DNA of 64,000 nt from an uncultured Lacinutrix sp. (GCF_947500325.1 NZ_CANMRQ010000001.1:1-64000), one strand, 5' to 3'; shown: positions 28,216-56,578, counted from the stretch's first letter. The notes: generated by a model not told the origin, from the letters alone. Numbers and translations: made by a program.

Positions 28216-28229
28216 CCTATTTATATAAG

Positions 28230-28302
28230 TTGGATGCATGAGACTTGAACTCACAACCTCCTGCTTGAGAGGCAGGCGCTCTTCCAATTGAGCTAGCATC
28301 CA
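28230..28302 (-). tRNA. tRNA-Glu (CTC)
   Basis: acceptor TGGATGC/GCATCCA, D GCTC/GAGC, anticodon stem CCTGC/GCAGG loop CTCTCAA, T-loop TTCAAGT. Confidence 0.6.
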
Positions 28303-28309
28303 ATAAAAA

Positions 28310-28381
28310 TCACGTAAGTAGGACTCGAACCTACAAATTTAGAAATGTTGCCTAATGTTTTTCCAATTAAACTATTACGTG
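28310..28381 (-). tRNA. tRNA-like gene with non-canonical anticodon loop (CAACATT; paralog of the tRNA-Cys unit)
   Basis: perfect 7-bp acceptor CACGTAA/TTACGTG, D GTTT/AAAC, T arm GTAGG-TTCGAGT-CCTAC; position 33 is A, anticodon ambiguous. Confidence 0.45.
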
Positions 28382-35105: not shown

Positions 35106-36568
<1,463 letters not shown>

Positions 36569-40265: not shown

Positions 40266-40316
40266 GTTATTAATATTTAAATAAGTGAGGTGTATGGTTT
40301 TGATTATCGGTCAATG

Positions 40317-40560
40317 AAATAGGAACACCTTTTACCTATTATTTTTTTAAAGACGAAGAGTAATTATCTTGTACCCTTTCGGGCAGCAAGTCGTAAATTT
40401 ATAGGAACTCTATATGTCTTTTATGACGAAGCGTAAATTAACCTCAAGCTCTTTCGAGCTCTGGAATCGAACCAGATTATAGGAACGCTTTGTGTCTTTT
40501 ACTAACGGAAAGTAATTTCTCCAATGAATGTTATAGGAACTTTCTGTGTCAGTAATTTAA
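40317..40560 (-). repeat. four degenerate tandem units beginning ATAGGAAC (minus strand GTTCCTAT), some carrying tRNA T-arm remnants
   Basis: units start near 40320, 40400, 40477, 40532; unit 2 contains CTGGTTCGATTCCAG on the minus strand. Confidence 0.5.
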
Positions 40561-40563
40561 TTG

Positions 40564-40676
40564 TAGTCCAGGTGGGACTCGAACCCACGACACACGGATT
40601 ATGAATCTATACAGGAACTTTTTTTTGCTGAAGGCGAAAAGTATTTTCGTTGCTCTACCTTCTGAGCTACTGGACT
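40564..40676 (-). tRNA. aberrant tRNA-like gene (113 nt) with perfect acceptor/D/T arms but a 46-nt insertion in the variable region and a non-canonical anticodon arm
   Basis: acceptor AGTCCAG/CTGGACT, D GCTC-AGAAGGTA-GAGC, T GTGGG-TTCGAGT-CCCAC; anticodon region ACGAAAATACTTTTCGC. Confidence 0.4.
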
Positions 40677-40810
40677 ATTTTTTTATTATGTTAAAGAACG
40701 TTGTACCTCTTACCAGATTCGAACTGGTACTTTCACATAACGTGAACAGATTGACTCTAAATGCGCTTCCCTACTATAATTTCGGTGCTTCTGCAAATTC
40801 TATTCGATAG

Positions 40811-41933
40811 CAAGCTTGTCACTAACGACATATTCAATCACTCCGTGGCTACGATTAAAAGTCTTTTACCACAGCTCTTCCTTTTAAGCTAAAGAGGCCT
40901 AATATTTTAAAAAGCGTTCTGAGAATACCTCCGCTTATAAACAAGCTTTCCTAGAATTATAGTTTACACTTTCTCTAGTTTTCCACGTGCTTCTTATTGC
41001 TTAGAGAATTACGTACTTGTTCGATGCCTTAATACATTACAACTGTTCGGCAACTTAGACTTGACTTGCATAGTGACTTTTGTCACGCTTTGCAATTACA
41101 AGGGTTGGCTCCCTCACCATTTATAAGCGTCCTCTTTTGAGGCGGCTTATTAGAATGTTCACCGCAAGACAAAGGTTTGCGACCTCCATCTCCCCATATA
41201 TTACAATGGGTTTAGGCAACTACTAACTGCTGTAATGTTCGAAGTCTTTTGCTTTTTACTCACCAACTGAGCAGTATCAAATTATGGTTTAGATACTAGG
41301 AATCGAACCTAGAAATAAAGTTTTGACCTTGGAAAAGGGCTTCGAAAATGGCTTCGTAGATTTTAGCCTACAAAATACCAACCTTTTCCATGCGTGTTTC
41401 CCAACACACCGTATGTTTAGCTACCGAATAGTTTCCTATCGGGTACCTATAATACTGCAATACGCTCCGTTAAATTGGATGATCTATACGTAACCTATTA
41501 CTACAACTTTTCCTGTTAATGTCTCCATTTCAAGCCTAATTAAATGTTAGCTATAAACCCTTATTTACCTCAGCGGTTGCCCCTTGTAAATAGAAATTTA
41601 TGTTAGTTGCTTGCTTACCTGTACTATACTCAAAAGAATACAGTCTCCATTTGCAGTGTCTGCAAATAGATTTATCCTTGTTACCAAGTTTATCTATGGA
41701 CGATAAGCCGCCCCATTATTTATAATAAATAATGATTTCTTTATATATAGAAGCTATAAATTTTCAGCTTCTTTTAATTTCAATGAACGTTTTTATTAAA
41801 CTCCACCAGCTTCAAAATCTGGTGGAGTACTACTTATAAAGTCTGATTCCAAAAGACTTTTAATTAATTACTCTGCAAATATTTTACACTATTACGCAAT
41901 GTTTTTGCGTAGTTAAAATGATTTATGAAATTT
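40811..41933 (-). ncRNA. 1.1-kb ORF-free, GC-enriched, hairpin-rich block; candidate large structured RNA (strand uncertain), containing a tRNA-like T-arm/acceptor with encoded CCA near 41285-41318
   Basis: no ORF of 60 aa or more in six frames inside a gene-dense island; local GC visibly above flanks; many imperfect hairpins. Confidence 0.3.
41866..41906 (-). promoter_or_regulatory. shared operator/promoter module (third copy) upstream of RNA ligase
   Basis: ACTACGCAAAAACATTGCGTAATAGTGTAAAATATTTGCAG on the minus strand. Confidence 0.5.
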
Positions 41934-43521: not shown

Positions 43522-43779
43522 AATATTGACCGCGAAAGCGGTTATCTTTTTAGTTAAATAATTATGTTGTGGAATAAACTGGATTAGCTCGCTAATTTTT
43601 ATTTTTTTAGCTGTGCTCGTGAATGCAAAAGCATTTTAAACCAGTATCTTCCGGGCTTAACTCAATGAATTTTATTTCATTAAATAAGATTCGTTGAATT
43701 CGTAAACTCATTTCTACCGGACGTATAGACCTACCCTTCGACTCCGCTCAGGACATGCTTTGCTATTATTCCTTTTTTG

Positions 43780-43852
43780 GGGTGATTTCGGGACTCGAAC
43801 CCTATTCTTCTCATTCACAGTGAGACATTTTACCTGTTAAACTAAAACCACC
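43780..43852 (-). tRNA. tRNA-His (GTG)
   Basis: anticodon arm TCTCA-CTGTGAA-TGAGA; T-loop TTCGAGT; C73. Confidence 0.65.
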
Positions 43853-43883
43853 ATTTTTAATTCCCATGAAAATGGGAATCTTA

Positions 43884-43958
43884 GTTCTGACAAAAGGATT
43901 TGAACCTTTATCCACAAACGTATCAGGTTTGCACTTTACCAATTAAGCTATGTCAGAA
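43884..43958 (-). tRNA. tRNA-Ile (GAT)
   Basis: acceptor TTCTGAC/GTCAGAA; anticodon arm CAAAC-CTGATAC-GTTTG; T-loop TTCAAAT. Confidence 0.7.
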
Positions 43959-43963
43959 TGTTG

Positions 43964-44034
43964 TTAACCCAATAGGACTCGAACCTATACCTCAAGAGTC
44001 AAAGTCTTGAATGCTGCCATTACACCACAGGTTA
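43964..44034 (-). tRNA. tRNA-Gln (TTG)
   Basis: U1-A72; anticodon arm CAAGA-CTTTGAC-TCTTG; T-loop TTCGAGT. Confidence 0.65.
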
Positions 44035-44040
44035 ATTTTG

Positions 44041-44113
44041 TAAGCTTAATAGGACTCGAACCCATATTCCCAGAGTCGTATTCTGGAGTGTTATCCAATT
44101 ACACCATAAGCTT
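44041..44113 (-). tRNA. tRNA-Arg (ACG)
   Basis: acceptor AAGCTTA/TAAGCTT; D GTGT/ACAC; anticodon arm CCAGA-ATACGAC-TCTGG. Confidence 0.7.
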
Positions 44114-44118
44114 ATTTG

Positions 44119-44192
44119 TATCCTACCTCGGACTCGAACCGAGAAATCACAGCGCTTAAAACTGATGCCTTTTCCAATTTGGCCAGTAGGAC
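44119..44192 (-). tRNA. class-I-shaped tRNA with Leu-type anticodon TAA (short variable arm; T27-T43 mismatch)
   Basis: acceptor GTCCTAC/GTAGGAT; anticodon loop TTTAAGC; variable GATTT; A73. Confidence 0.5.
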
Positions 44193-44197
44193 ATTAG

Positions 44198-44271
44198 TAC
44201 AGGAAGAGAGATTTGAACTCTCAAAATCTTGTTTCTAAAACAAGCGCGTATGCCAGTTCCGCCATTCCTGC
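44198..44271 (-). tRNA. class-I-shaped tRNA with Leu-type anticodon TAG (short variable arm)
   Basis: acceptor GCAGGAA/TTCCTGT; anticodon arm CTTGT-TTTAGAA-ACAAG; variable ATTTT; A73. Confidence 0.5.
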
Positions 44272-44276
44272 ATTAG

Positions 44277-44350
44277 TTGAGATGTCAGGAATCGAACCTG
44301 AACCTTTCGCCTTATGAGAGCGATGCTCTACCTAGTTAAGCTACATCTCA
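44277..44350 (-). tRNA. tRNA with CAT anticodon (Met elongator or Ile-lysidine; not initiator-like)
   Basis: acceptor TGAGATG/CATCTCA; anticodon arm TCGCT-CTCATAA-GGCGA. Confidence 0.65.
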
Positions 44351-44355
44351 ATTTG

Positions 44356-44427
44356 TTGAGGCAATAGGGATCGAACCTATGACTGTCACGATGTAAGCGT
44401 GATGCTCTTCCGCTGAGCTATACCTCA
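44356..44427 (-). tRNA. tRNA-Val (TAC)
   Basis: D GCTC/GAGC; anticodon arm TCACG-CTTACAT-CGTGA; T-loop TTCGATC. Confidence 0.7.
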
Positions 44428-44432
44428 ATTTG

Positions 44433-44504
44433 TACTCTATAAGGGAATCGAACCCTTGTCTTCCGATAGAAAGTCGGATGCACTAACCACTATGCTAATA
44501 GAGC
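44433..44504 (-). tRNA. tRNA-Glu (TTC) with U at position 37
   Basis: anticodon arm TCCGA-CTTTCTA-TCGGA. Confidence 0.6.
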
Positions 44505-44510
44505 ATTTTG

Positions 44511-44582
44511 CGGTTCATACGAGAGTCGAACTCGTATCTCCCGAGAGACAGTCGGGAAGGATAGCCATTACCCCAATGAACC
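44511..44582 (-). tRNA. tRNA-Asp (GTC) with U at position 37, G73
   Basis: acceptor GGTTCAT/ATGAACC; anticodon arm CCCGA-CTGTCTC-TCGGG. Confidence 0.6.
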
Positions 44583-44589
44583 TTTAAAA

Positions 44590-44743
44590 ATTGAAGCTGA
44601 AATCGAAGTCGAACCTGAACTTATATAGCTTCGTTTTTATCTTCATTTTGTACATCTACCTGGATTAGTTCGTATCACACATATTTTTTTAAATGAGTGA
44701 GCTAAATCTTTAGTGCTATCCATTACACCATAAATGCTAATTG
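44590..44743 (-). pseudogene. decayed tRNA remnant(s): intact-looking 5' half (GCATTTA-TG-GTGT-AATGGATA-GCAC) with degenerate anticodon/T region and an unrelated GAAGCT...AGCTTC hairpin
   Basis: 5' half resembles the Arg/Gln genes of the array; no complete cloverleaf can be drawn. Confidence 0.35.
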
Positions 44744-44826
44744 TGGAAGTAGTAGGACTCGAACCTACATGCTCCGAAGAGACCAGATTTACAGTCTGGC
44801 GAGCCAACCAATTGCTCAATACTTCC
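44744..44826 (-). tRNA. tRNA-Tyr (GTA), type II with 14-nt variable arm
   Basis: acceptor GGAAGTA/TACTTCC; anticodon arm CCAGA-CTGTAAA-TCTGG. Confidence 0.7.
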
Positions 44827-44920
44827 AATTTTGAGACAAGGATGAGATTGTTACACGTTCTCATCAAGTCACAAATTGAATGTCACATTTTTAAACAGGT
44901 TTAAAATGTTTTCATCATTG

Positions 44921-44993
44921 AGACAAGGATGAGATTCGAACTCATAAAAAACAGTTTTGCAGACTGTTACTTTAACCATTCAGCCACCTTGTC
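44921..44993 (-). tRNA. tRNA-Cys (GCA), second copy
   Basis: acceptor GACAAGG/CCTTGTC; anticodon arm ACAGT-CTGCAAA-ACTGT; preceded by a 19-bp direct repeat of its own 3' end. Confidence 0.6.
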
Positions 44994-44997
44994 TTTG

Positions 44998-45070
44998 CGA
45001 TAGTGATAGGATTCGAACCTATAACCAAGGACTTAACAGATCCACGCTCTGCCATTGAGCTACACTATCA
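44998..45070 (-). tRNA. tRNA-Asn (GTT), G73
   Basis: acceptor GATAGTG/CACTATC; anticodon loop CTGTTAA. Confidence 0.65.
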
Positions 45071-45075
45071 TTTTG

Positions 45076-45148
45076 AGGAGTTACGGAGACTTGCACTCCA
45101 TTCTGCACATTGCAAACGTGCTGTTTTGGCTTGGTAAACTATAACCCC
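45076..45148 (-). tRNA. tRNA-Ala (TGC) with G3:U70 identity pair and unusual T-loop TGCAAGT
   Basis: acceptor GGGGTTA/TAACTCC; anticodon arm GCACG-TTTGCAA-TGTGC. Confidence 0.6.
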
Positions 45149-45159
45149 ATAATTTTTTG

Positions 45160-45246
45160 CGGAGAGCAAAGGAATCGAACCTTCACCGCCATAAAGCGGA
45201 CTTGTTTAGCAGACAAGCGCAACAAACCAGTATTTGCCTACTCTCC
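45160..45246 (-). tRNA. tRNA-Ser (GCT), type II
   Basis: anticodon arm CTTGT-CTGCTAA-ACAAG; long variable arm; G73. Confidence 0.65.
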
Positions 45247-45259
45247 ATTTATTTATATC

Positions 45260-45333
45260 GTCTAAGAGACAGGATTCGAACCTGCAACCTCTCGCTTCCA
45301 AAGCGAGTAAACTATCCATCGTTCTCCTCTTAG
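45260..45333 (-). tRNA. tRNA-Pro (TGG), C1-G72, A73
   Basis: acceptor CTAAGAG/CTCTTAG; anticodon arm CTCGC-TTTGGAA-GCGAG. Confidence 0.7.
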
Positions 45334-45338
45334 TTTTG

Positions 45339-45425
45339 CGGAAGGAGTGGGAATCGAACCCACACGAGTCGTTATCTCCGAACAGTTTTCAAAACTGTGG
45401 CCACCACCTATTGGCTTGCCCTTCC
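45339..45425 (-). tRNA. tRNA-Ser (TGA), type II
   Basis: anticodon arm ACAGT-TTTGAAA-ACTGT; long variable arm; G73. Confidence 0.65.
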
Positions 45426-45434
45426 ATTTTTTTG

Positions 45435-45508
45435 TTGACGTAGTGAGAGTCGAACTCACATAACCTCGATTAAAAGTCGAGTGCTTTAGCCAGTTAAGCT
45501 ACACGTCA
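45435..45508 (-). tRNA. tRNA-Lys (TTT)
   Basis: acceptor TGACGTG/TACGTCA; D GCTT/AAGC; anticodon arm CTCGA-CTTTTAA-TCGAG. Confidence 0.7.
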
Positions 45509-48711: not shown

Positions 48712-49407
48712 TTAGTTATTTAATTCATTGCGTAAATCATTTTTTAATGCGCAACGTTGTTTTTTATATTTTTTTACAACTGTATTCTTTTTAAAATTTG
48801 AGCCTTTAAAAACTTGTATAGGATTACCTCTTTCTAATTTTAAATGGTTTCCCCATTGGTTTTTAATACTCATTTGTAAAGCTTCTAATTGTATTGCGCT
48901 TACTTTTTCTTGCAAGCGTATTTTTGCTATTTTTTTATTTTGATGTTGTGAGCGGCTATCCATAACTAATACTTGTGTTTTAGTTAGTTTATGAATAGCC
49001 CTAATAGCGGAGCTCACTTTATTTACATGCTGTCCTCCAGGTCCAGAACTACGAGTTGCTTGATATGTAATATCTTTGTCATGAATTTGAAATTCTTGAC
49101 TTTGTTCTATCTCATATAAACCCACAAACCAATTTTTACGTTTATGATTTGGCCTAAAAGCCGAAACGCCTATCCACTGTATTGTTCCTTTCCATTGACT
49201 TAAAAACACCTCTAGGTTTTCTCCTTTTAATTGAACAGTAACCGACTGCAATGTCAAATTCTCTATTCCTTTTTCCCTTTGTAATATTTTATAATCAATA
49301 GCATTGCGTTTTACAGCTTCTAAAAATTGCTTTAAAACTTGAGCCACAACCCAACAACATTCTGCTGGTCCTCGACCTGAGGTTATTTGTATTATTTTAG
49401 TATTCAT
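48712..49407 (-). CDS. prfH: peptide chain release factor homologue PrfH (GGQ-containing; RtcB2-associated)
   Basis: matches E. coli PrfH block-by-block: GPAECC, WKGTIQWIGVSAFRPNHKRKNWFVG, RSSGPGGQHVNK, ERGNP; 231 aa. Confidence 0.85.
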   Translation of the reverse strand: MNTKIIQITSGRGPAECCWVVAQVLKQFLEAVKRNAIDYKILQREKGIENLTLQSVTVQLKGENLEVFLSQWKGTIQWIGVSAFRPNHKRKNWFVGLYEIEQSQEFQIHDKDITYQATRSSGPGGQHVNKVSSAIRAIHKLTKTQVLVMDSRSQHQNKKIAKIRLQEKVSAIQLEALQMSIKNQWGNHLKLERGNPIQVFKGSNFKKNTVVKKYKKQRCALKNDLRNELNN

Positions 49408-49966
49408 TTTTATATACTTTTTCTAAAGGATTTTTAGACAGTAATACATTACCAACAGGATTTTCACCTTTCGCAATTAATTGTAACGCTGCTTTTACTG
49501 CCCAGCATTTATCGCTAGAATGAATGTTAGAGTAGAAGCTTAATAACGTTTTTGGCTCAACTAATGTCCAACCATTTACTTTTATAACTTCTACTGTCGC
49601 AGATTCAAAAAAATCTATAGTTACTCTTACTTGTTTTCCTGTTTCTAGCCAATCTATTTTCTCGTAACGTCTAAAATTTTCGTTACTTGGCATATGGTCA
49701 TATCGTGTCCACACTTTTTCGAAACCATTGGCTGCTAGTACTACCATCACTTCTGCAACATCTTTTGGATGTACAAAAATGTCTATATCCTTATGATCAT
49801 GCGCATGTTTGTATTCTGTATGGTCTTCTGGTGACATAAAATGCCATGCCCAACCTCCTGAAATAATAATCCATGCTTTTAATTTATTTAAAATGTCCAA
49901 ACCCTTTTCTATTCTATAGTTTGGCCATTGCTCTCCGTATCTTTTTATGTTATGATTTGCTCCCAT
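49397..49966 (-). CDS. hypothetical protein, possible minimal nucleotidyltransferase (GG...DIDI motif)
   Basis: ISGGWAW...DHKDIDIFV; 189 aa; overlaps prfH start. Confidence 0.35.
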   Translation of the reverse strand: MGANHNIKRYGEQWPNYRIEKGLDILNKLKAWIIISGGWAWHFMSPEDHTEYKHAHDHKDIDIFVHPKDVAEVMVVLAANGFEKVWTRYDHMPSNENFRRYEKIDWLETGKQVRVTIDFFESATVEVIKVNGWTLVEPKTLLSFYSNIHSSDKCWAVKAALQLIAKGENPVGNVLLSKNPLEKVYKNEY

Positions 49967-49992
49967 AATTCCTTTGTTTTTAAAGCAAAAAT

Positions 49993-51384
49993 TTACCTAG
50001 CCATTCTCACTATTTTTGGTGTAAACTTGCCAACAACCTCAACTAATTCTAATTGATTTTGCATCACTTTTTCAATGTTTTTATATGCCATTGGCGCCTC
50101 GTCAATACCGCCTCCAATTAAAGAGACGTCATGCTTTTGCAATTCTTTTTTTATTGCACTTTGCGTTAATGTCATTTTACATTGTCGTCTTGACAATAAA
50201 CGTCCTGCACCGTGAGATGCCGATTGTAAACTCTCTGTATTACCTAATCCTCTAACTATAAATCCTGGCGCCGTCATAGATCCAGGAATAATACCTAGCT
50301 CTCCTTTTTTTGCTGGTGTCGCTCCTTTTCTATGTACTATACATTCTTGACCATTTACGTCTTGTTTCCAAGCGAAATTGTGATGATTTTCTATTTTGGC
50401 AATTGGTCTTTCTCCTAATAATTTACCTATGCGTTTATGAATATCATCATGGCAAGCTTTTGCATAATCTCCAGCCAAATTCATAGCTAGCCAATATTCT
50501 TGTCCGTCGTGAGTATTTAAATCTAACCATGCTAAATGCTGTACATGTTTTGGTAACGGACATTGCTTTGTTGCCAAATATGTATAATGCTTAGCGATGT
50601 TAGCACCCAAACCTCTTGAACCACTATGTGATAAAACACCTAAGTATTCTCCTATTGGTAAATCCCATTCGTTATTTACATCTAGAATACTTACTTGACC
50701 AAATTCGACAAAATGATTGCCGCCACCCGAAGTTCCTAATTGCTTATAAGCTTTATCTTTTAAGCGTTTTACTAACGGAATCGTTTTAAACTCTTCACGT
50801 TCAAAAACTGGATCATCATGTTTTATTTTGTGCGTTTCGTACATCCCAAATTTGGTGTGCTCCGACAAAATATTTTCCAATTGATGCTTCTTTCCTTTTA
50901 AATAAGAGGCTTTAACGGGATATATAGTTAAACACATTCTGCACCCAATATCTACGCCTACACCATAAGGAATAACAGCATCTTTTGTTGCTAATACGCC
51001 TCCAATTGGCAATCCATATCCTACATGTGCATCTGGCATTAAAGCACCAGCAACTGCAATTGGTAGTTTTAAAGCATCGAATAATTGATACTTTGCTTTA
51101 TCGTCGATTTCATTGTCTCCATAGATTTGAAATGGTGCGCGATGTGTATTTAATACTTGCTTTTTTACCACTACAGGATCTAATAAACTTTCGGCTATTT
51201 TACCCCAAACACCATCACCTTTATAAGCCTCAGGATTTAATAATACTTTCTTTGCTTCTATTAATATTTTTTCTTTTTTTATTCTTTTCTGGTAACGATT
51301 AATTTGACCTAAAGTCACATTAATACTATTGTTTTTCGGAAAGCCTAACTTGATTAAGTCTTTCCCGCTTAATTTCTTTCCCAT
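49993..51384 (-). CDS. rtcB: RtcB-family RNA ligase, PrfH-associated paralog (RtcB2-type)
   Basis: RtcB motifs PDAHVGYG, GCRMC, GGGNHF, HSGSRGLG, HHN; 463 aa; same operon as prfH. Confidence 0.8.
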   Translation of the reverse strand: MGKKLSGKDLIKLGFPKNNSINVTLGQINRYQKRIKKEKILIEAKKVLLNPEAYKGDGVWGKIAESLLDPVVVKKQVLNTHRAPFQIYGDNEIDDKAKYQLFDALKLPIAVAGALMPDAHVGYGLPIGGVLATKDAVIPYGVGVDIGCRMCLTIYPVKASYLKGKKHQLENILSEHTKFGMYETHKIKHDDPVFEREEFKTIPLVKRLKDKAYKQLGTSGGGNHFVEFGQVSILDVNNEWDLPIGEYLGVLSHSGSRGLGANIAKHYTYLATKQCPLPKHVQHLAWLDLNTHDGQEYWLAMNLAGDYAKACHDDIHKRIGKLLGERPIAKIENHHNFAWKQDVNGQECIVHRKGATPAKKGELGIIPGSMTAPGFIVRGLGNTESLQSASHGAGRLLSRRQCKMTLTQSAIKKELQKHDVSLIGGGIDEAPMAYKNIEKVMQNQLELVEVVGKFTPKIVRMAR

Positions 51385-54856: not shown

Positions 54857-56578
54857 ATGGCAGTAAATAAAAACGCATTAATTCGTTATAAAACTATAGA
54901 TAAATGTCTTCAAAATAATTTTAGACAATGGACACTTAATGACTTAATAGAAGCTGTATCTGATGCGCTTTACGAATACGAAGGCAAAGATATAGATGTA
55001 AGTAAACGTACAGTGCAATTAGACCTTCAAATGATGCGTAGCGATAAACTAGGTTATAATGCTCCTATTGTGGTTTATAATAGAAAATATTATAAGTACG
55101 ATGATGACAATTATAGTATTACAAATAGCCCTATTTCTAATCAAGATTTAACAAAATTATCTGAAGCTGTTTCTTTTTTAAAACAATTCCAAGGATTTTC
55201 CCATTTTAAAGAACTAGGAAGCATGGTTCAAAAACTAGAAGACCATGTATACACCCAAAAAACACAAGAAAAATCGTTAATTGATTTTGAAAAAAATGAA
55301 AACTTGAAAGGTCTAGAGTTTCTAGATGAATTATATCAATTTATTCTTAAAAAACAAGCTATTGAAATTACATACCAGTCTTTTAAAGCAAGACAAGAAA
55401 ATACATTTACATATTATCCTTATTTATTAAAAGAATATAGAAATCGATGGTTTGTTATTGGTAAAAGAAAGAAAAATGAAGGCATAATGAACTTAGCTTT
55501 AGACCGCATTATTTCAATTAATAAAAGCTCTAAAACTTATACAATTGACAGCTCTTTTGATTCTAAAACATACTATAAAGATGTTATAGGCGTATCTGTA
55601 AGTCCAAATATGGCTGCAGAAGATGTTGTGTTTTATGTTAACCATAAACACGCTCCTTATGTTATTACAAAACCTTTTCATAAATCTCAAAAAATTATAG
55701 ATCGTGATAATTATGGTGTTACTTTCTCTATGCAAGTGCAACTTAATTTTGAATTAGAAAAGGAAATTTTAGGGCTTGGGGAATCTATTAAAATTATAGC
55801 TCCAGAGCGTTTAAAACGGAATATTAAAGAACGTTTATATGATGCTATTGACACTTATGAAACAGAGATTAGTGATAAAAATTTACGAACTATAGCAAAA
55901 CGATTAGAATATAAAGGGTTCGGTATTTTAAATCACATATATTCAAAGCGTGATATTAGAAAACTTAAAGCACGATTTGATAGTTATATAAAACAGAACA
56001 ATGAACAAGCTTATGGTATGCGAGAAGTCTTATTAAAAATGCCTGAACTTAAGGGTATTCTTTTTAATAAAAACTTTAGAAAACTTATTAAGTCTATTGA
56101 TAAAAATGTGTTTTTAACTAAAGCTATTTATTTTGACAAATCTCCAAATGAAAATTGGTATGTTAATTGGCACCAAGATGTCCCTATTAATGTTAGTAAA
56201 AAAATAGAAACTAATAATTTCTCGTCTTGGACAAATAAAAAAGGTGTTATTAGTGTTTGTCCTCCGCAAAAAATTTCTCAGAATACTTTTTCTATGCGCA
56301 TTCATTTAGATGATACCTCCATAAAAAATGGAGCCTTAAAGGTTATTCCTGGTTCGCATAACAAGCGTTTAAAAGACGATGAGATACAATTAATAAGCTC
56401 AAATTCAATACCTTTTATATGTGAAGTTGCTTCAGGTGGTGTTCAATTATTAAAACCGTTACTTCTTCACGCTTCTTCTAAAACTACTACTCAAAAAAGG
56501 CGCCGTGTACTACATTTAGAATTTTCTTCTATTGCGTTACCAAATGGCTTAGAATATGCTGAAAAAGAAGTGTTATAA
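54857..56578 (+). CDS. HTH-WYL domain regulator fused to a PhyH-type Fe(II)/2-oxoglutarate dioxygenase domain
   Basis: N-terminal HTH (SKRTVQLDLQMM), WYL-like core YYPYLLKEYRNRWFVIG, C-terminal WHQDVP (HxD) and VIPGSH motifs; 573 aa. Confidence 0.55.
   Translation: MAVNKNALIRYKTIDKCLQNNFRQWTLNDLIEAVSDALYEYEGKDIDVSKRTVQLDLQMMRSDKLGYNAPIVVYNRKYYKYDDDNYSITNSPISNQDLTKLSEAVSFLKQFQGFSHFKELGSMVQKLEDHVYTQKTQEKSLIDFEKNENLKGLEFLDELYQFILKKQAIEITYQSFKARQENTFTYYPYLLKEYRNRWFVIGKRKKNEGIMNLALDRIISINKSSKTYTIDSSFDSKTYYKDVIGVSVSPNMAAEDVVFYVNHKHAPYVITKPFHKSQKIIDRDNYGVTFSMQVQLNFELEKEILGLGESIKIIAPERLKRNIKERLYDAIDTYETEISDKNLRTIAKRLEYKGFGILNHIYSKRDIRKLKARFDSYIKQNNEQAYGMREVLLKMPELKGILFNKNFRKLIKSIDKNVFLTKAIYFDKSPNENWYVNWHQDVPINVSKKIETNNFSSWTNKKGVISVCPPQKISQNTFSMRIHLDDTSIKNGALKVIPGSHNKRLKDDEIQLISSNSIPFICEVASGGVQLLKPLLLHASSKTTTQKRRRVLHLEFSSIALPNGLEYAEKEVL

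Follow-up and report, generated by a model that had tools for sequence, protein, structure and literature searches.

GOLLD RNAs and the studied locus

GOLLD ranks with the largest non-coding RNAs of bacteria, and its cage structure was solved in 2025. The RNA assembles into a 14-mer cage that encloses the linker, this linker sometimes holds tRNAs, the genes lie near tRNA islands and the RNA has no known function (PMC12286853, PMC12990946). In the solved GOLLD the 5′ and 3′ domains are structurally separate; the env-38 GOLLD measures 833 nucleotides (nt), with a 5′ region at 1-420 and a 3′ region at 421-833, and ribosomes are reportedly pulled down with GOLLD (PMC12286853). Both tRNAs and pseudo-tRNAs have been reported in the linker (PMC12286853, PMC12990946, PMC6582537), and a review proposes an 'inhibited storage' of the embedded tRNAs (PMC12990946). 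Here we examine a stretch of 64,000 nt from an uncultured Lacinutrix sp. (GCF_947500325.1 NZ_CANMRQ010000001.1:1-64000), hereafter the window, and in it the block at 40811-41933, which is very probably the gene for a minus-strand GOLLD-family RNA composed of a covarying 5′ domain, a linker and a pseudoknotted 3′ domain. The RNA is a true GOLLD, of a family already known, and it falls in a chromosomal clade of Bacteroidota whose scores lie under the Rfam cut-off and which was overlooked by annotation. New and lineage-specific are a permuted tRNA mimic in the linker, a boundary motif, a companion RNA (E2) and the setting in an RNA-repair island.

Identification of the GOLLD-family RNA

An earlier inspection of the window (the sequence-only reading) had described 40811-41933 as free of open reading frames (ORFs) of 60 amino acids (aa) or more and as enriched in GC, and had proposed a large ornate non-coding RNA, naming GOLLD first. 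The longest ORF inside the block is indeed 56 aa, a 69-aa ORF terminating at 40810, and the GC enrichment is genuine and modest in size: 35.5% in the block and 38.4% in 40913-41720, versus 28-31% in the two flanking genes and 30.4% in the whole window. All three GC-rich strings quoted in that reading were found.

Scanning the block against Rfam at gathering thresholds left it empty, with GOLLD absent, and a match emerged only with an E-value threshold. This match to RF02032 (GOLLD) runs from 41390 to 40913 on the minus strand and covers the model in full length (1-416 of 416) with 131.9 bits (E=3.9e-36). The RF02032 gathering score of 150 bits is an annotation cut-off and not a biological feature, and the RNA was filed as GOLLD despite its sub-threshold score because the hallmarks of GOLLD in sequence, secondary structure, linker and location were found. 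Since no other family reached E<1 in the block, ROOL, HEARO, tmRNA and group I/II introns, which had been suggested for the same scan, were excluded.

For the comparative analysis, loci were fetched around homologs of the 610-aa protein encoded beside the block, and the Rfam structure was mapped onto a 51-sequence alignment, with partners slid by 1-3 columns as controls. In the window, 80 of the 87 RF02032 model pairs are canonical. Across the alignment, 88.8% of the cells of the 3′ domain are paired (34-47% when slid), and two-sided changes occur in 50 of the 87 pairs (15-24 when slid). The pseudoknot between 41229-41237 and 41035-41043 covaries, e.g., UA 34/CG 16 and GC 33/AU 14 among the 51 sequences, as does the hairpin at 41330..41390, in which the pair 41388/41332 is GC in 21, AU in 18 and GU in 12 sequences. 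Upstream of the 3′ domain the alignment continues ungapped to about 41725, and the RNAalifold consensus of this 5′ domain comprises 106 pairs within 41708-41392, with 93.7% of cells paired versus 34-42% slid and two-sided changes in 78 pairs versus 37-52 slid, a comparison that is somewhat generous because the structure was derived from the same alignment. Strong covariation, which the sequence-only reading had named as a check, is therefore present in the 5′ domain and in the 3′ domain including the pseudoknot. A profile of the 5′ domain also matched the 5′ regions of two huge-phage GOLLDs, L195 (E=4e-9) and L196 (E=1e-9), which score 275-287 bits with Rfam, above the threshold; the similarity lies at the start of the domain. 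Both domains are thus homologous to accepted GOLLDs, the 3′ domain by its match to RF02032 and the 5′ domain by this profile match.

The same RNA was recognized in other chromosomes. Two of the fetched loci, L128 and L129, score 135 and 139 bits on RF02032 in the same position and orientation as the window GOLLD, and the exact invariant 3′-domain 22-mer TAGTAGTTGCCTAAACCCATTG occurs in 54 species genomes, distributed over Flavobacteriaceae (Winogradskyella, Dokdonia, Psychroserpens, Maribacter, Olleya and others), Crocinitomix and Saprospiraceae. All of 20 further clade members that were scored fall short of 150 bits, so standard annotation misses the clade systematically. Among viral sequences, a blastn search with the block found no match in 50,697 phage records, the 22-mer had no exact match in IMG/VR, and the IMG/VR relatives of the neighboring Rnl2 ligase (32-40% identity) included none with GOLLD nearby. 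A set of 120 IMG/VR loci containing the GOLLD-core 16-mer AAAGCAAAAGNCTTCG was also considered and discarded, all being chance occurrences, with none matched by the clade 3′-domain profile in nhmmer.

Extent and architecture

The earlier proposal of a large RNA, with GOLLD named first, is supported. The block nevertheless comprises several objects: the large RNA occupies 40913-41791, and a leader and a separate RNA lie at the ends of the block. The unit is delimited at about 41791..40913 because the conservation profile, a boundary motif and the hairpins following this motif define it, and its length fits published GOLLD sizes. The features of the locus, in the direction of the minus strand, are as follows.

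41792-41933: predicted promoter/operator leader, part of the block
41873..41913 (−): predicted promoter/operator region upstream of GOLLD, with the palindrome CGCAA-N5-TTGCG at 41895-41909
41838-41860 and 41800-41828 (span 41800..41860) (−): leader hairpins, conserved in relatives
41791..40913 (−): GOLLD-family RNA, ~880 nt (879 nt)
41777..41791 (−): boundary motif AACGTTCATTGAAAT, the 5′ edge of the GOLLD unit, conserved across loci
41750-41771 and 41714-41734 (span 41714..41771) (−): two variable hairpins before the conserved core, kept as hairpins while the sequence varies
41391..41713 (−): 5′ domain core, from ungapped conservation and consensus structure
41330..41390 (−): long bulged hairpin, RF02032 positions 1-62, directly before the linker, from covariation
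41258..41312 (−): permuted tRNA-like module in the linker of GOLLD
41296-41312 (−): T-arm of the module, CTAGGTTCGATTCCTAG
41285-41295 (−): acceptor 3′ strand of the module, TATCTAA, plus ACCA
41282-41284 (−): spacer of the module, TAA
41275-41281 (−): acceptor 5′ strand of the module, TTTGATA
41258-41272 (−): D-arm of the module, GCUC-AGUUGGU-GAGU, preceded by CT
40913..41252 (−): 3′ domain core with the pseudoknot 41229-41237/41035-41043, from the RF02032 match and covariation
40704..40898 (−): E2, a 195-nt tRNA-like RNA with acceptor, D and T arms and a structured insertion of ~130 nt
40811-40898 (−): 5′ part of E2, the portion lying inside the block
40564..40676 (−): E1, a 113-nt tRNA-like RNA with an insertion of ~40 nt at the anticodon position, immediately preceding the 610-aa gene

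In most of the 57 GOLLD loci that were mapped (a number that includes two loci duplicating another), the boundary motif AACGTTCATTGAAAT recurs with at most two mismatches at a distance of 510-680 nt upstream of the 22-mer, and 43 of the loci have a match within 900 nt. The motif is present whether the preceding element is a tRNA, E2 or a hairpin. A second copy stands at 40688-40702, after E2; the possibility that the repeat flanking GOLLD and E2 is a target-site duplication was rejected, because the left of the two copies recurs as a conserved element of the GOLLD unit in almost every genome. As to the two hairpins that follow the motif, their sequences vary between genomes and both hairpins are kept in every locus shown.

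A permuted tRNA-like module in the linker

The linker is located between the first RF02032 hairpin and the conserved GCAAAAGACUUCG, and in the window its elements follow one another in the order T-arm, TATCTAA, ACCA, TAA, TTTGATA, CT and D-arm. The T-arm and the encoded CCA on the minus strand had already been pointed out from sequence inspection, correctly in both cases; ARAGORN called no tRNA at this site (41285-41312). The module has a circularly permuted tRNA order, in which a CCA-containing loop closes the acceptor helix, the remainder of GOLLD being joined where the anticodon arm would be. TTTGATA and TATCTAA pair at six of seven positions, and the minimum free energy fold of the window module yields the T-arm, acceptor and D-arm helices. 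Because the window copy has these three elements and no anticodon arm, it is a tRNA mimic and not a tRNA. The module carries ACCA, whereas an encoded CCA is found in 2 of the 22 tRNAs of the surrounding island.

At least 28 distinct clade sequences display the same arrangement, with the T-loop and the D-loop GG kept in all 28, and longer versions of the module add an anticodon-like hairpin, the loop sequences of which are not conserved. In a MAFFT alignment of the 28 distinct modules, two-sided changes were observed at all 7 acceptor pairs, and the acceptor covariation score was 0.434, versus 0.183 for shuffled (0 of 500 reaching it) and 0.085-0.217 for slid partners. Compensatory changes also occur within lineages (AGAGACA/TGTCTTT to AAAAACA/TGTTTTT, and TATCTAA/TTGGATA to TATCTCA/GGGGATA), and in Dokdonia the acceptor 5′ strand pairs 7/7 with the upstream strand, not with the downstream one. 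Rotating the linker, that is, un-permuting it, lets ARAGORN recognize a tRNA in 18 genomes, of which just two, L180 and L191, had given a linker tRNA call in the native order. RNAalifold on the MAFFT alignment of the linker modules recovered the T stem alone, since loops of variable length shift the other helices out of register, and a fixed-register parse of the acceptor, from which several of the best cases dropped out, gave a weaker signal of 4.9/7 pairs versus 3.0 for non-cognate strands.

The linker is also the variable part of the clade, with lengths of 36-127 nt. Some modules are without CCA or have imperfect acceptor helices, and the linkers of the Saprospiraceae members contain a tRNA in standard order (49-65 bits). 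Four phage GOLLDs were inspected and showed no permuted module, that of phage Weiss13 having a standard-order pseudo-tRNA. In the GOLLD literature that we found, no permuted linker tRNA is described; the primary papers Weinberg 2009 and Morgado 2020 may mention one.

Leader, putative operator and operons without GOLLD

The palindrome CGCAA-N5-TTGCG has two copies in the window, at 41895-41909 and at 36551-36565, the latter just upstream of RtcB, for a chance expectation of 0.01. It is kept in relatives without GOLLD and is repeated before other island genes. It is a likely binding site of the WYL-WCX-PhyH regulator encoded divergently at 54857-56578. A scan for sigma-70 promoters and terminators found nothing above chance, a scan that does not cover Bacteroidota promoters. 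Both leader hairpins are kept in GOLLD-containing and in GOLLD-less relatives, and stem changes preserve the pairing (CCACCAG/CTGGTGG versus CTGCCAG/CTGGCAG).

In three GOLLD-less loci (L130, L136 and L138) the leader continues straight into E1 and the 610-aa gene. GOLLD and E2 therefore form a cassette of ~1.1 kb within the operon leader, and in L142 this cassette is placed after the 610-aa gene instead.

Companion tRNA-like RNAs

E2 is an RNA separate from GOLLD. Compensatory changes affect 19 of its 56 predicted pairs among 16 homologs, it had no Rfam match with E up to 10, and it adjoins GOLLD, on either the 5′ or the 3′ side, in 19 of the 57 mapped loci. It was also detected in two tRNA arrays without GOLLD on IMG/VR viral contigs (L198 and L199). 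Further insertions were seen in E2 of L137 (~90 nt in the T-loop) and of L128 (~55 nt in the anticodon-like loop).

E1 matches the Rfam tRNA model with 48.3 bits, 51 nt replacing 11, and directly precedes the 610-aa gene in genomes ranging from Winogradskyella to Chryseobacterium, with compensatory changes in 10 of 28 pairs; it may be a Y-RNA-like partner of the operon proteins. Its insertion carries the invariant strings ACUUUUCGC and GUUCCU and is itself one copy of a 60-70-nt unit, AATTAC...GTTCCTATAA, of which the 610-aa gene leader (40266-40563, minus strand) has four more copies. One copy of the unit is followed by a T-arm-like CTGGTTCGATTCCAG.

The tRNA-array and RNA-repair island

The window belongs to the chromosome of a marine member of the Flavobacteriaceae (Bacteroidota). 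It contains genes of ordinary metabolism and encodes proteins with sorting tails for type IX secretion, and the 610-aa protein shares 84-91% identity with Winogradskyella, Psychroserpens and Bizionia proteins. GOLLD lies within a minus-strand island (~26.8-52.8 kb) containing 22 tRNA genes, among them an array of 18 at 43778-45508 on the same strand as GOLLD. The island enzymes acting on RNA include two RtcB ligases, an Rnl2-type RNA ligase and two RlaP nucleotidyltransferases; RlaP enzymes repair damaged tRNA 3′ ends (PMC12776372). A CCA-adding-type nucleotidyltransferase with an HD domain, an R2K ATP-grasp protein, RNase T-like exonuclease proteins and PrfH (TIGR03072, 221.7 bits for a cut-off of 166.65) are encoded as well. 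No phage structural genes were seen in the window, and the prophage framing of the sequence-only reading found no support, the locus being a chromosomal tRNA-array and RNA-repair island.

The order tRNA array, DUF458, Rnl2, GOLLD, E2, E1, 610-aa gene and RtcB recurs in other genomes. A same-strand tRNA array is located upstream of GOLLD in most of the 54 loci, and the position of GOLLD at the end of tRNA arrays is conserved, with RNA-repair genes as frequent neighbors. This conserved gene context renders plausible the link between the block RNA and the repair system that had been suggested earlier.

Additional observations concern the tRNA arrays and their surroundings. An RtcB-PrfH pair is followed by a TPR protein at 48712-51384 (minus strand), and the succession PrfH, TPR protein, tRNA array and GOLLD recurs in many Flavobacteriaceae genomes. 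Related arrays hold tRNA genes of 95-131 nt, called by ARAGORN or Rfam with insertions (L141 5253-5348 and 6959-7053; L147 1084-1179; L128 3619-3749), and short insertions may thus be a common feature of the tRNAs in these RtcB-adjacent arrays. A second, small tRNA cluster of the window has the unusual anticodons Cys(ACA) and Glu(CUC) at 28310-28381 and 28229-28302 (minus strand), and related arrays carry Tyr(AUA), Asp(AUC) and Phe(AAA); such anticodons suggest non-standard or decoy tRNAs.

Possible roles and alternative explanations

By homology with the solved structures, the window RNA would fold by itself into a homo-oligomeric cage with the linker and its tRNA-like module facing inside. 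The gene context suggests transcription from the operator-bearing promoter at ~41873-41913 together with E2, E1, the 610-aa gene and possibly genes beyond. This unit may be part of a WYL-controlled regulon repairing damaged tRNA and ribosomes, a membership proposed because a separate copy of this operator precedes RtcB. The cage might then display or sequester the tRNA top-half mimic for RNase P, the CCA-adding enzyme, RtcB, the ribosome or like factors, which is our best guess at a role, held with low confidence. In a more far-reaching reading, the linker mimic would be selected, tRNA-processing or repair enzymes would act on its CCA loop, and GOLLD would work in a regulated response to tRNA and ribosome damage; it is possible and still clearly short of probable. 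RNase P and 3′ trimming could in that case yield a two-piece GOLLD with a free CCA end or, alternatively, RtcB-type ligation could circularise the excised module, and the damage response would comprise the WYL operator, RtcB, PrfH, Rnl2, RlaP and the CCA-adding enzyme.

That the block is a new structured RNA, another large RNA (ROOL, HEARO, tmRNA or a group I/II intron) or decayed coding or tRNA-array sequence might be argued from the score under the gathering threshold and from the tRNA fragments it contains, and it is extremely improbable in view of the full-length model match with no other family at E<1, a covariation that backs the GOLLD structure down to its pseudoknot, the resemblance of the 5′ domain to above-threshold GOLLDs and the lack of a conserved ORF. 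A different question is whether the tRNA-like piece has no function and survives from a deletion that, in a variable, recombination-prone linker, brought the 3′ end of one tRNA next to the 5′ start of a tandem copy, so that the complementarity of its strands would be inherited and not selected. The position of GOLLD at tRNA-array ends agrees with such an origin, as do the extra T-arm that Dokdonia-type linkers have after the anticodon arm, as tandem copies would, the lack of conservation in anticodon-loop sequences, and the clade members with a standard-order tRNA or a non-tRNA-like linker. Against it speak the compensatory changes within lineages and the two-sided changes at all 7 acceptor pairs, the pairing of the Dokdonia acceptor 5′ strand upstream and not downstream, the T-loop and D-loop GG kept in 28 distinct sequences, and the presence of CCA in modules when the array tRNAs are without it; we regard a remnant as rather unlikely.

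A further explanation takes the module as the mimic of a junction between two tRNAs of a polycistronic transcript, where RNase P would cut on the 5′ side of the acceptor 5′ strand (~41281/41282) and 3′ exonucleases would trim to the encoded ACCA. The RNA would then work in two pieces, the 5′ half terminating in CCA-OH and staying attached to the 3′ half through the acceptor helix and the D/T elbow. The succession of T-arm, acceptor 3′ strand, NCCA, spacer of 3-5 nt, acceptor 5′ strand and D-arm matches what RNase P encounters where two tRNAs adjoin, CCA is frequent in modules and not encoded by the array tRNAs, genes for an RNase T-like exonuclease and for a CCA-adding-type enzyme lie in the island, and the two domains are separate in the solved GOLLD (PMC12286853). 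In that structure, however, the linker is inside the cage, which may exclude RNase P, and 'inhibited storage' has been proposed (PMC12990946), while some modules are without CCA or have imperfect acceptor helices. We regard cleavage into two pieces as rather unlikely too.

Several observations weigh against parts of the GOLLD assignment or against the structure, context and role proposed for it. The window score lies below the gathering score, as do those of the 20 further clade members, and the strand, the RNA ends and the co-transcription of GOLLD are predicted from comparison. The acceptor helix of the window has one U-U mismatch, and the fold energy of the module is unremarkable (z=-1.3). 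Close relatives (L128, L129, L137 and others) have an unrelated, non-tRNA-like linker, of 83 nt in L128, L129 and L137, and the module is therefore not essential to GOLLD. GOLLD in turn is dispensable for the operon, because three close relatives have the same operon without it. Many of the 54 loci show the tRNA array alone within 8 kb, so the link with repair genes is not universal. An obligatory role is hence opposed on three sides, by the operon without GOLLD, by GOLLD without repair genes within 8 kb and by the module missing in close relatives.

Implications

A sizeable clade had been overlooked, comprising at least 54 species and including cultured Winogradskyella, Dokdonia, Olleya and Maribacter. 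Its GOLLD is chromosomal and has a fixed place in tRNA-array and RNA-repair islands, with a recognizable operator ahead of it in the window genome, and the linker, which in the solved structure faces the cage interior, holds a tRNA mimic in an order that is apparently undescribed, as far as we found. These findings open GOLLD function to experiment in tractable bacteria and argue for the inclusion of the clade in the Rfam seed alignment. If true, the selected-mimic reading would provide the first functional handle on GOLLD.

Comparison with known systems

ROOL resembles the window RNA as a large ornate cage-forming RNA near tRNA arrays and is unrelated in sequence and structure, with no ROOL match in the block. 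Circularly permuted tRNA genes were reportedly described by Soma et al. in 2007 in the red alga Cyanidioschyzon merolae. As in the linker module, the 3′ half precedes the 5′ half there and a short spacer with the CCA position joins the acceptor ends; in contrast, the algal genes are free-standing and mature via a circular intermediate into working tRNAs, whereas the module sits in a large RNA, has anticodon loops that are not conserved and, in the window copy, is without an anticodon arm.

YrlA and other Y RNAs are tRNA mimics in the Salmonella rsr-yrlBA-rtcBA operon, and tmRNA has a tRNA-like domain. Background on the Salmonella operon is given in PMC7790460. The likeness to the window module lies in a mimic of the tRNA top half (acceptor, T-arm and D-loop) without an anticodon arm, beside RtcB-type repair genes. 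The block, however, matches no YrlA or tmRNA model, the regulator here is a WYL-domain protein and not RtcR, and no TROVE/Ro gene stands beside the block in the window.

Closest in setting is the GOLLD of Mycobacterium tRNA arrays (PMC6582537, and Morgado 2020 as related in PMC12990946), with which the window shares a horizontally acquired tRNA array and a tRNA-like linker, there tRNA-Phe or a pseudo-tRNA. The Mycobacterium linker has the standard tRNA order, as in Weiss13 and the Saprospiraceae members, whereas it is permuted here. With GOLLD as characterized (RF02032; the env-38 14-mer, PMC12286853; the S. agalactiae 3′ domain, PMC12990946), the window RNA has in common the pseudoknotted 3′ domain, the separate 5′ domain, the intervening linker, a size above 800 nt and the position at a tRNA array. 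The Bacteroidota clade differs in scoring 132-139 bits versus 188-287 for the phage GOLLDs checked, in its chromosomal RNA-repair island where no phage structural genes were seen, and in bearing a permuted tRNA-like linker module and a conserved 5′ boundary motif.
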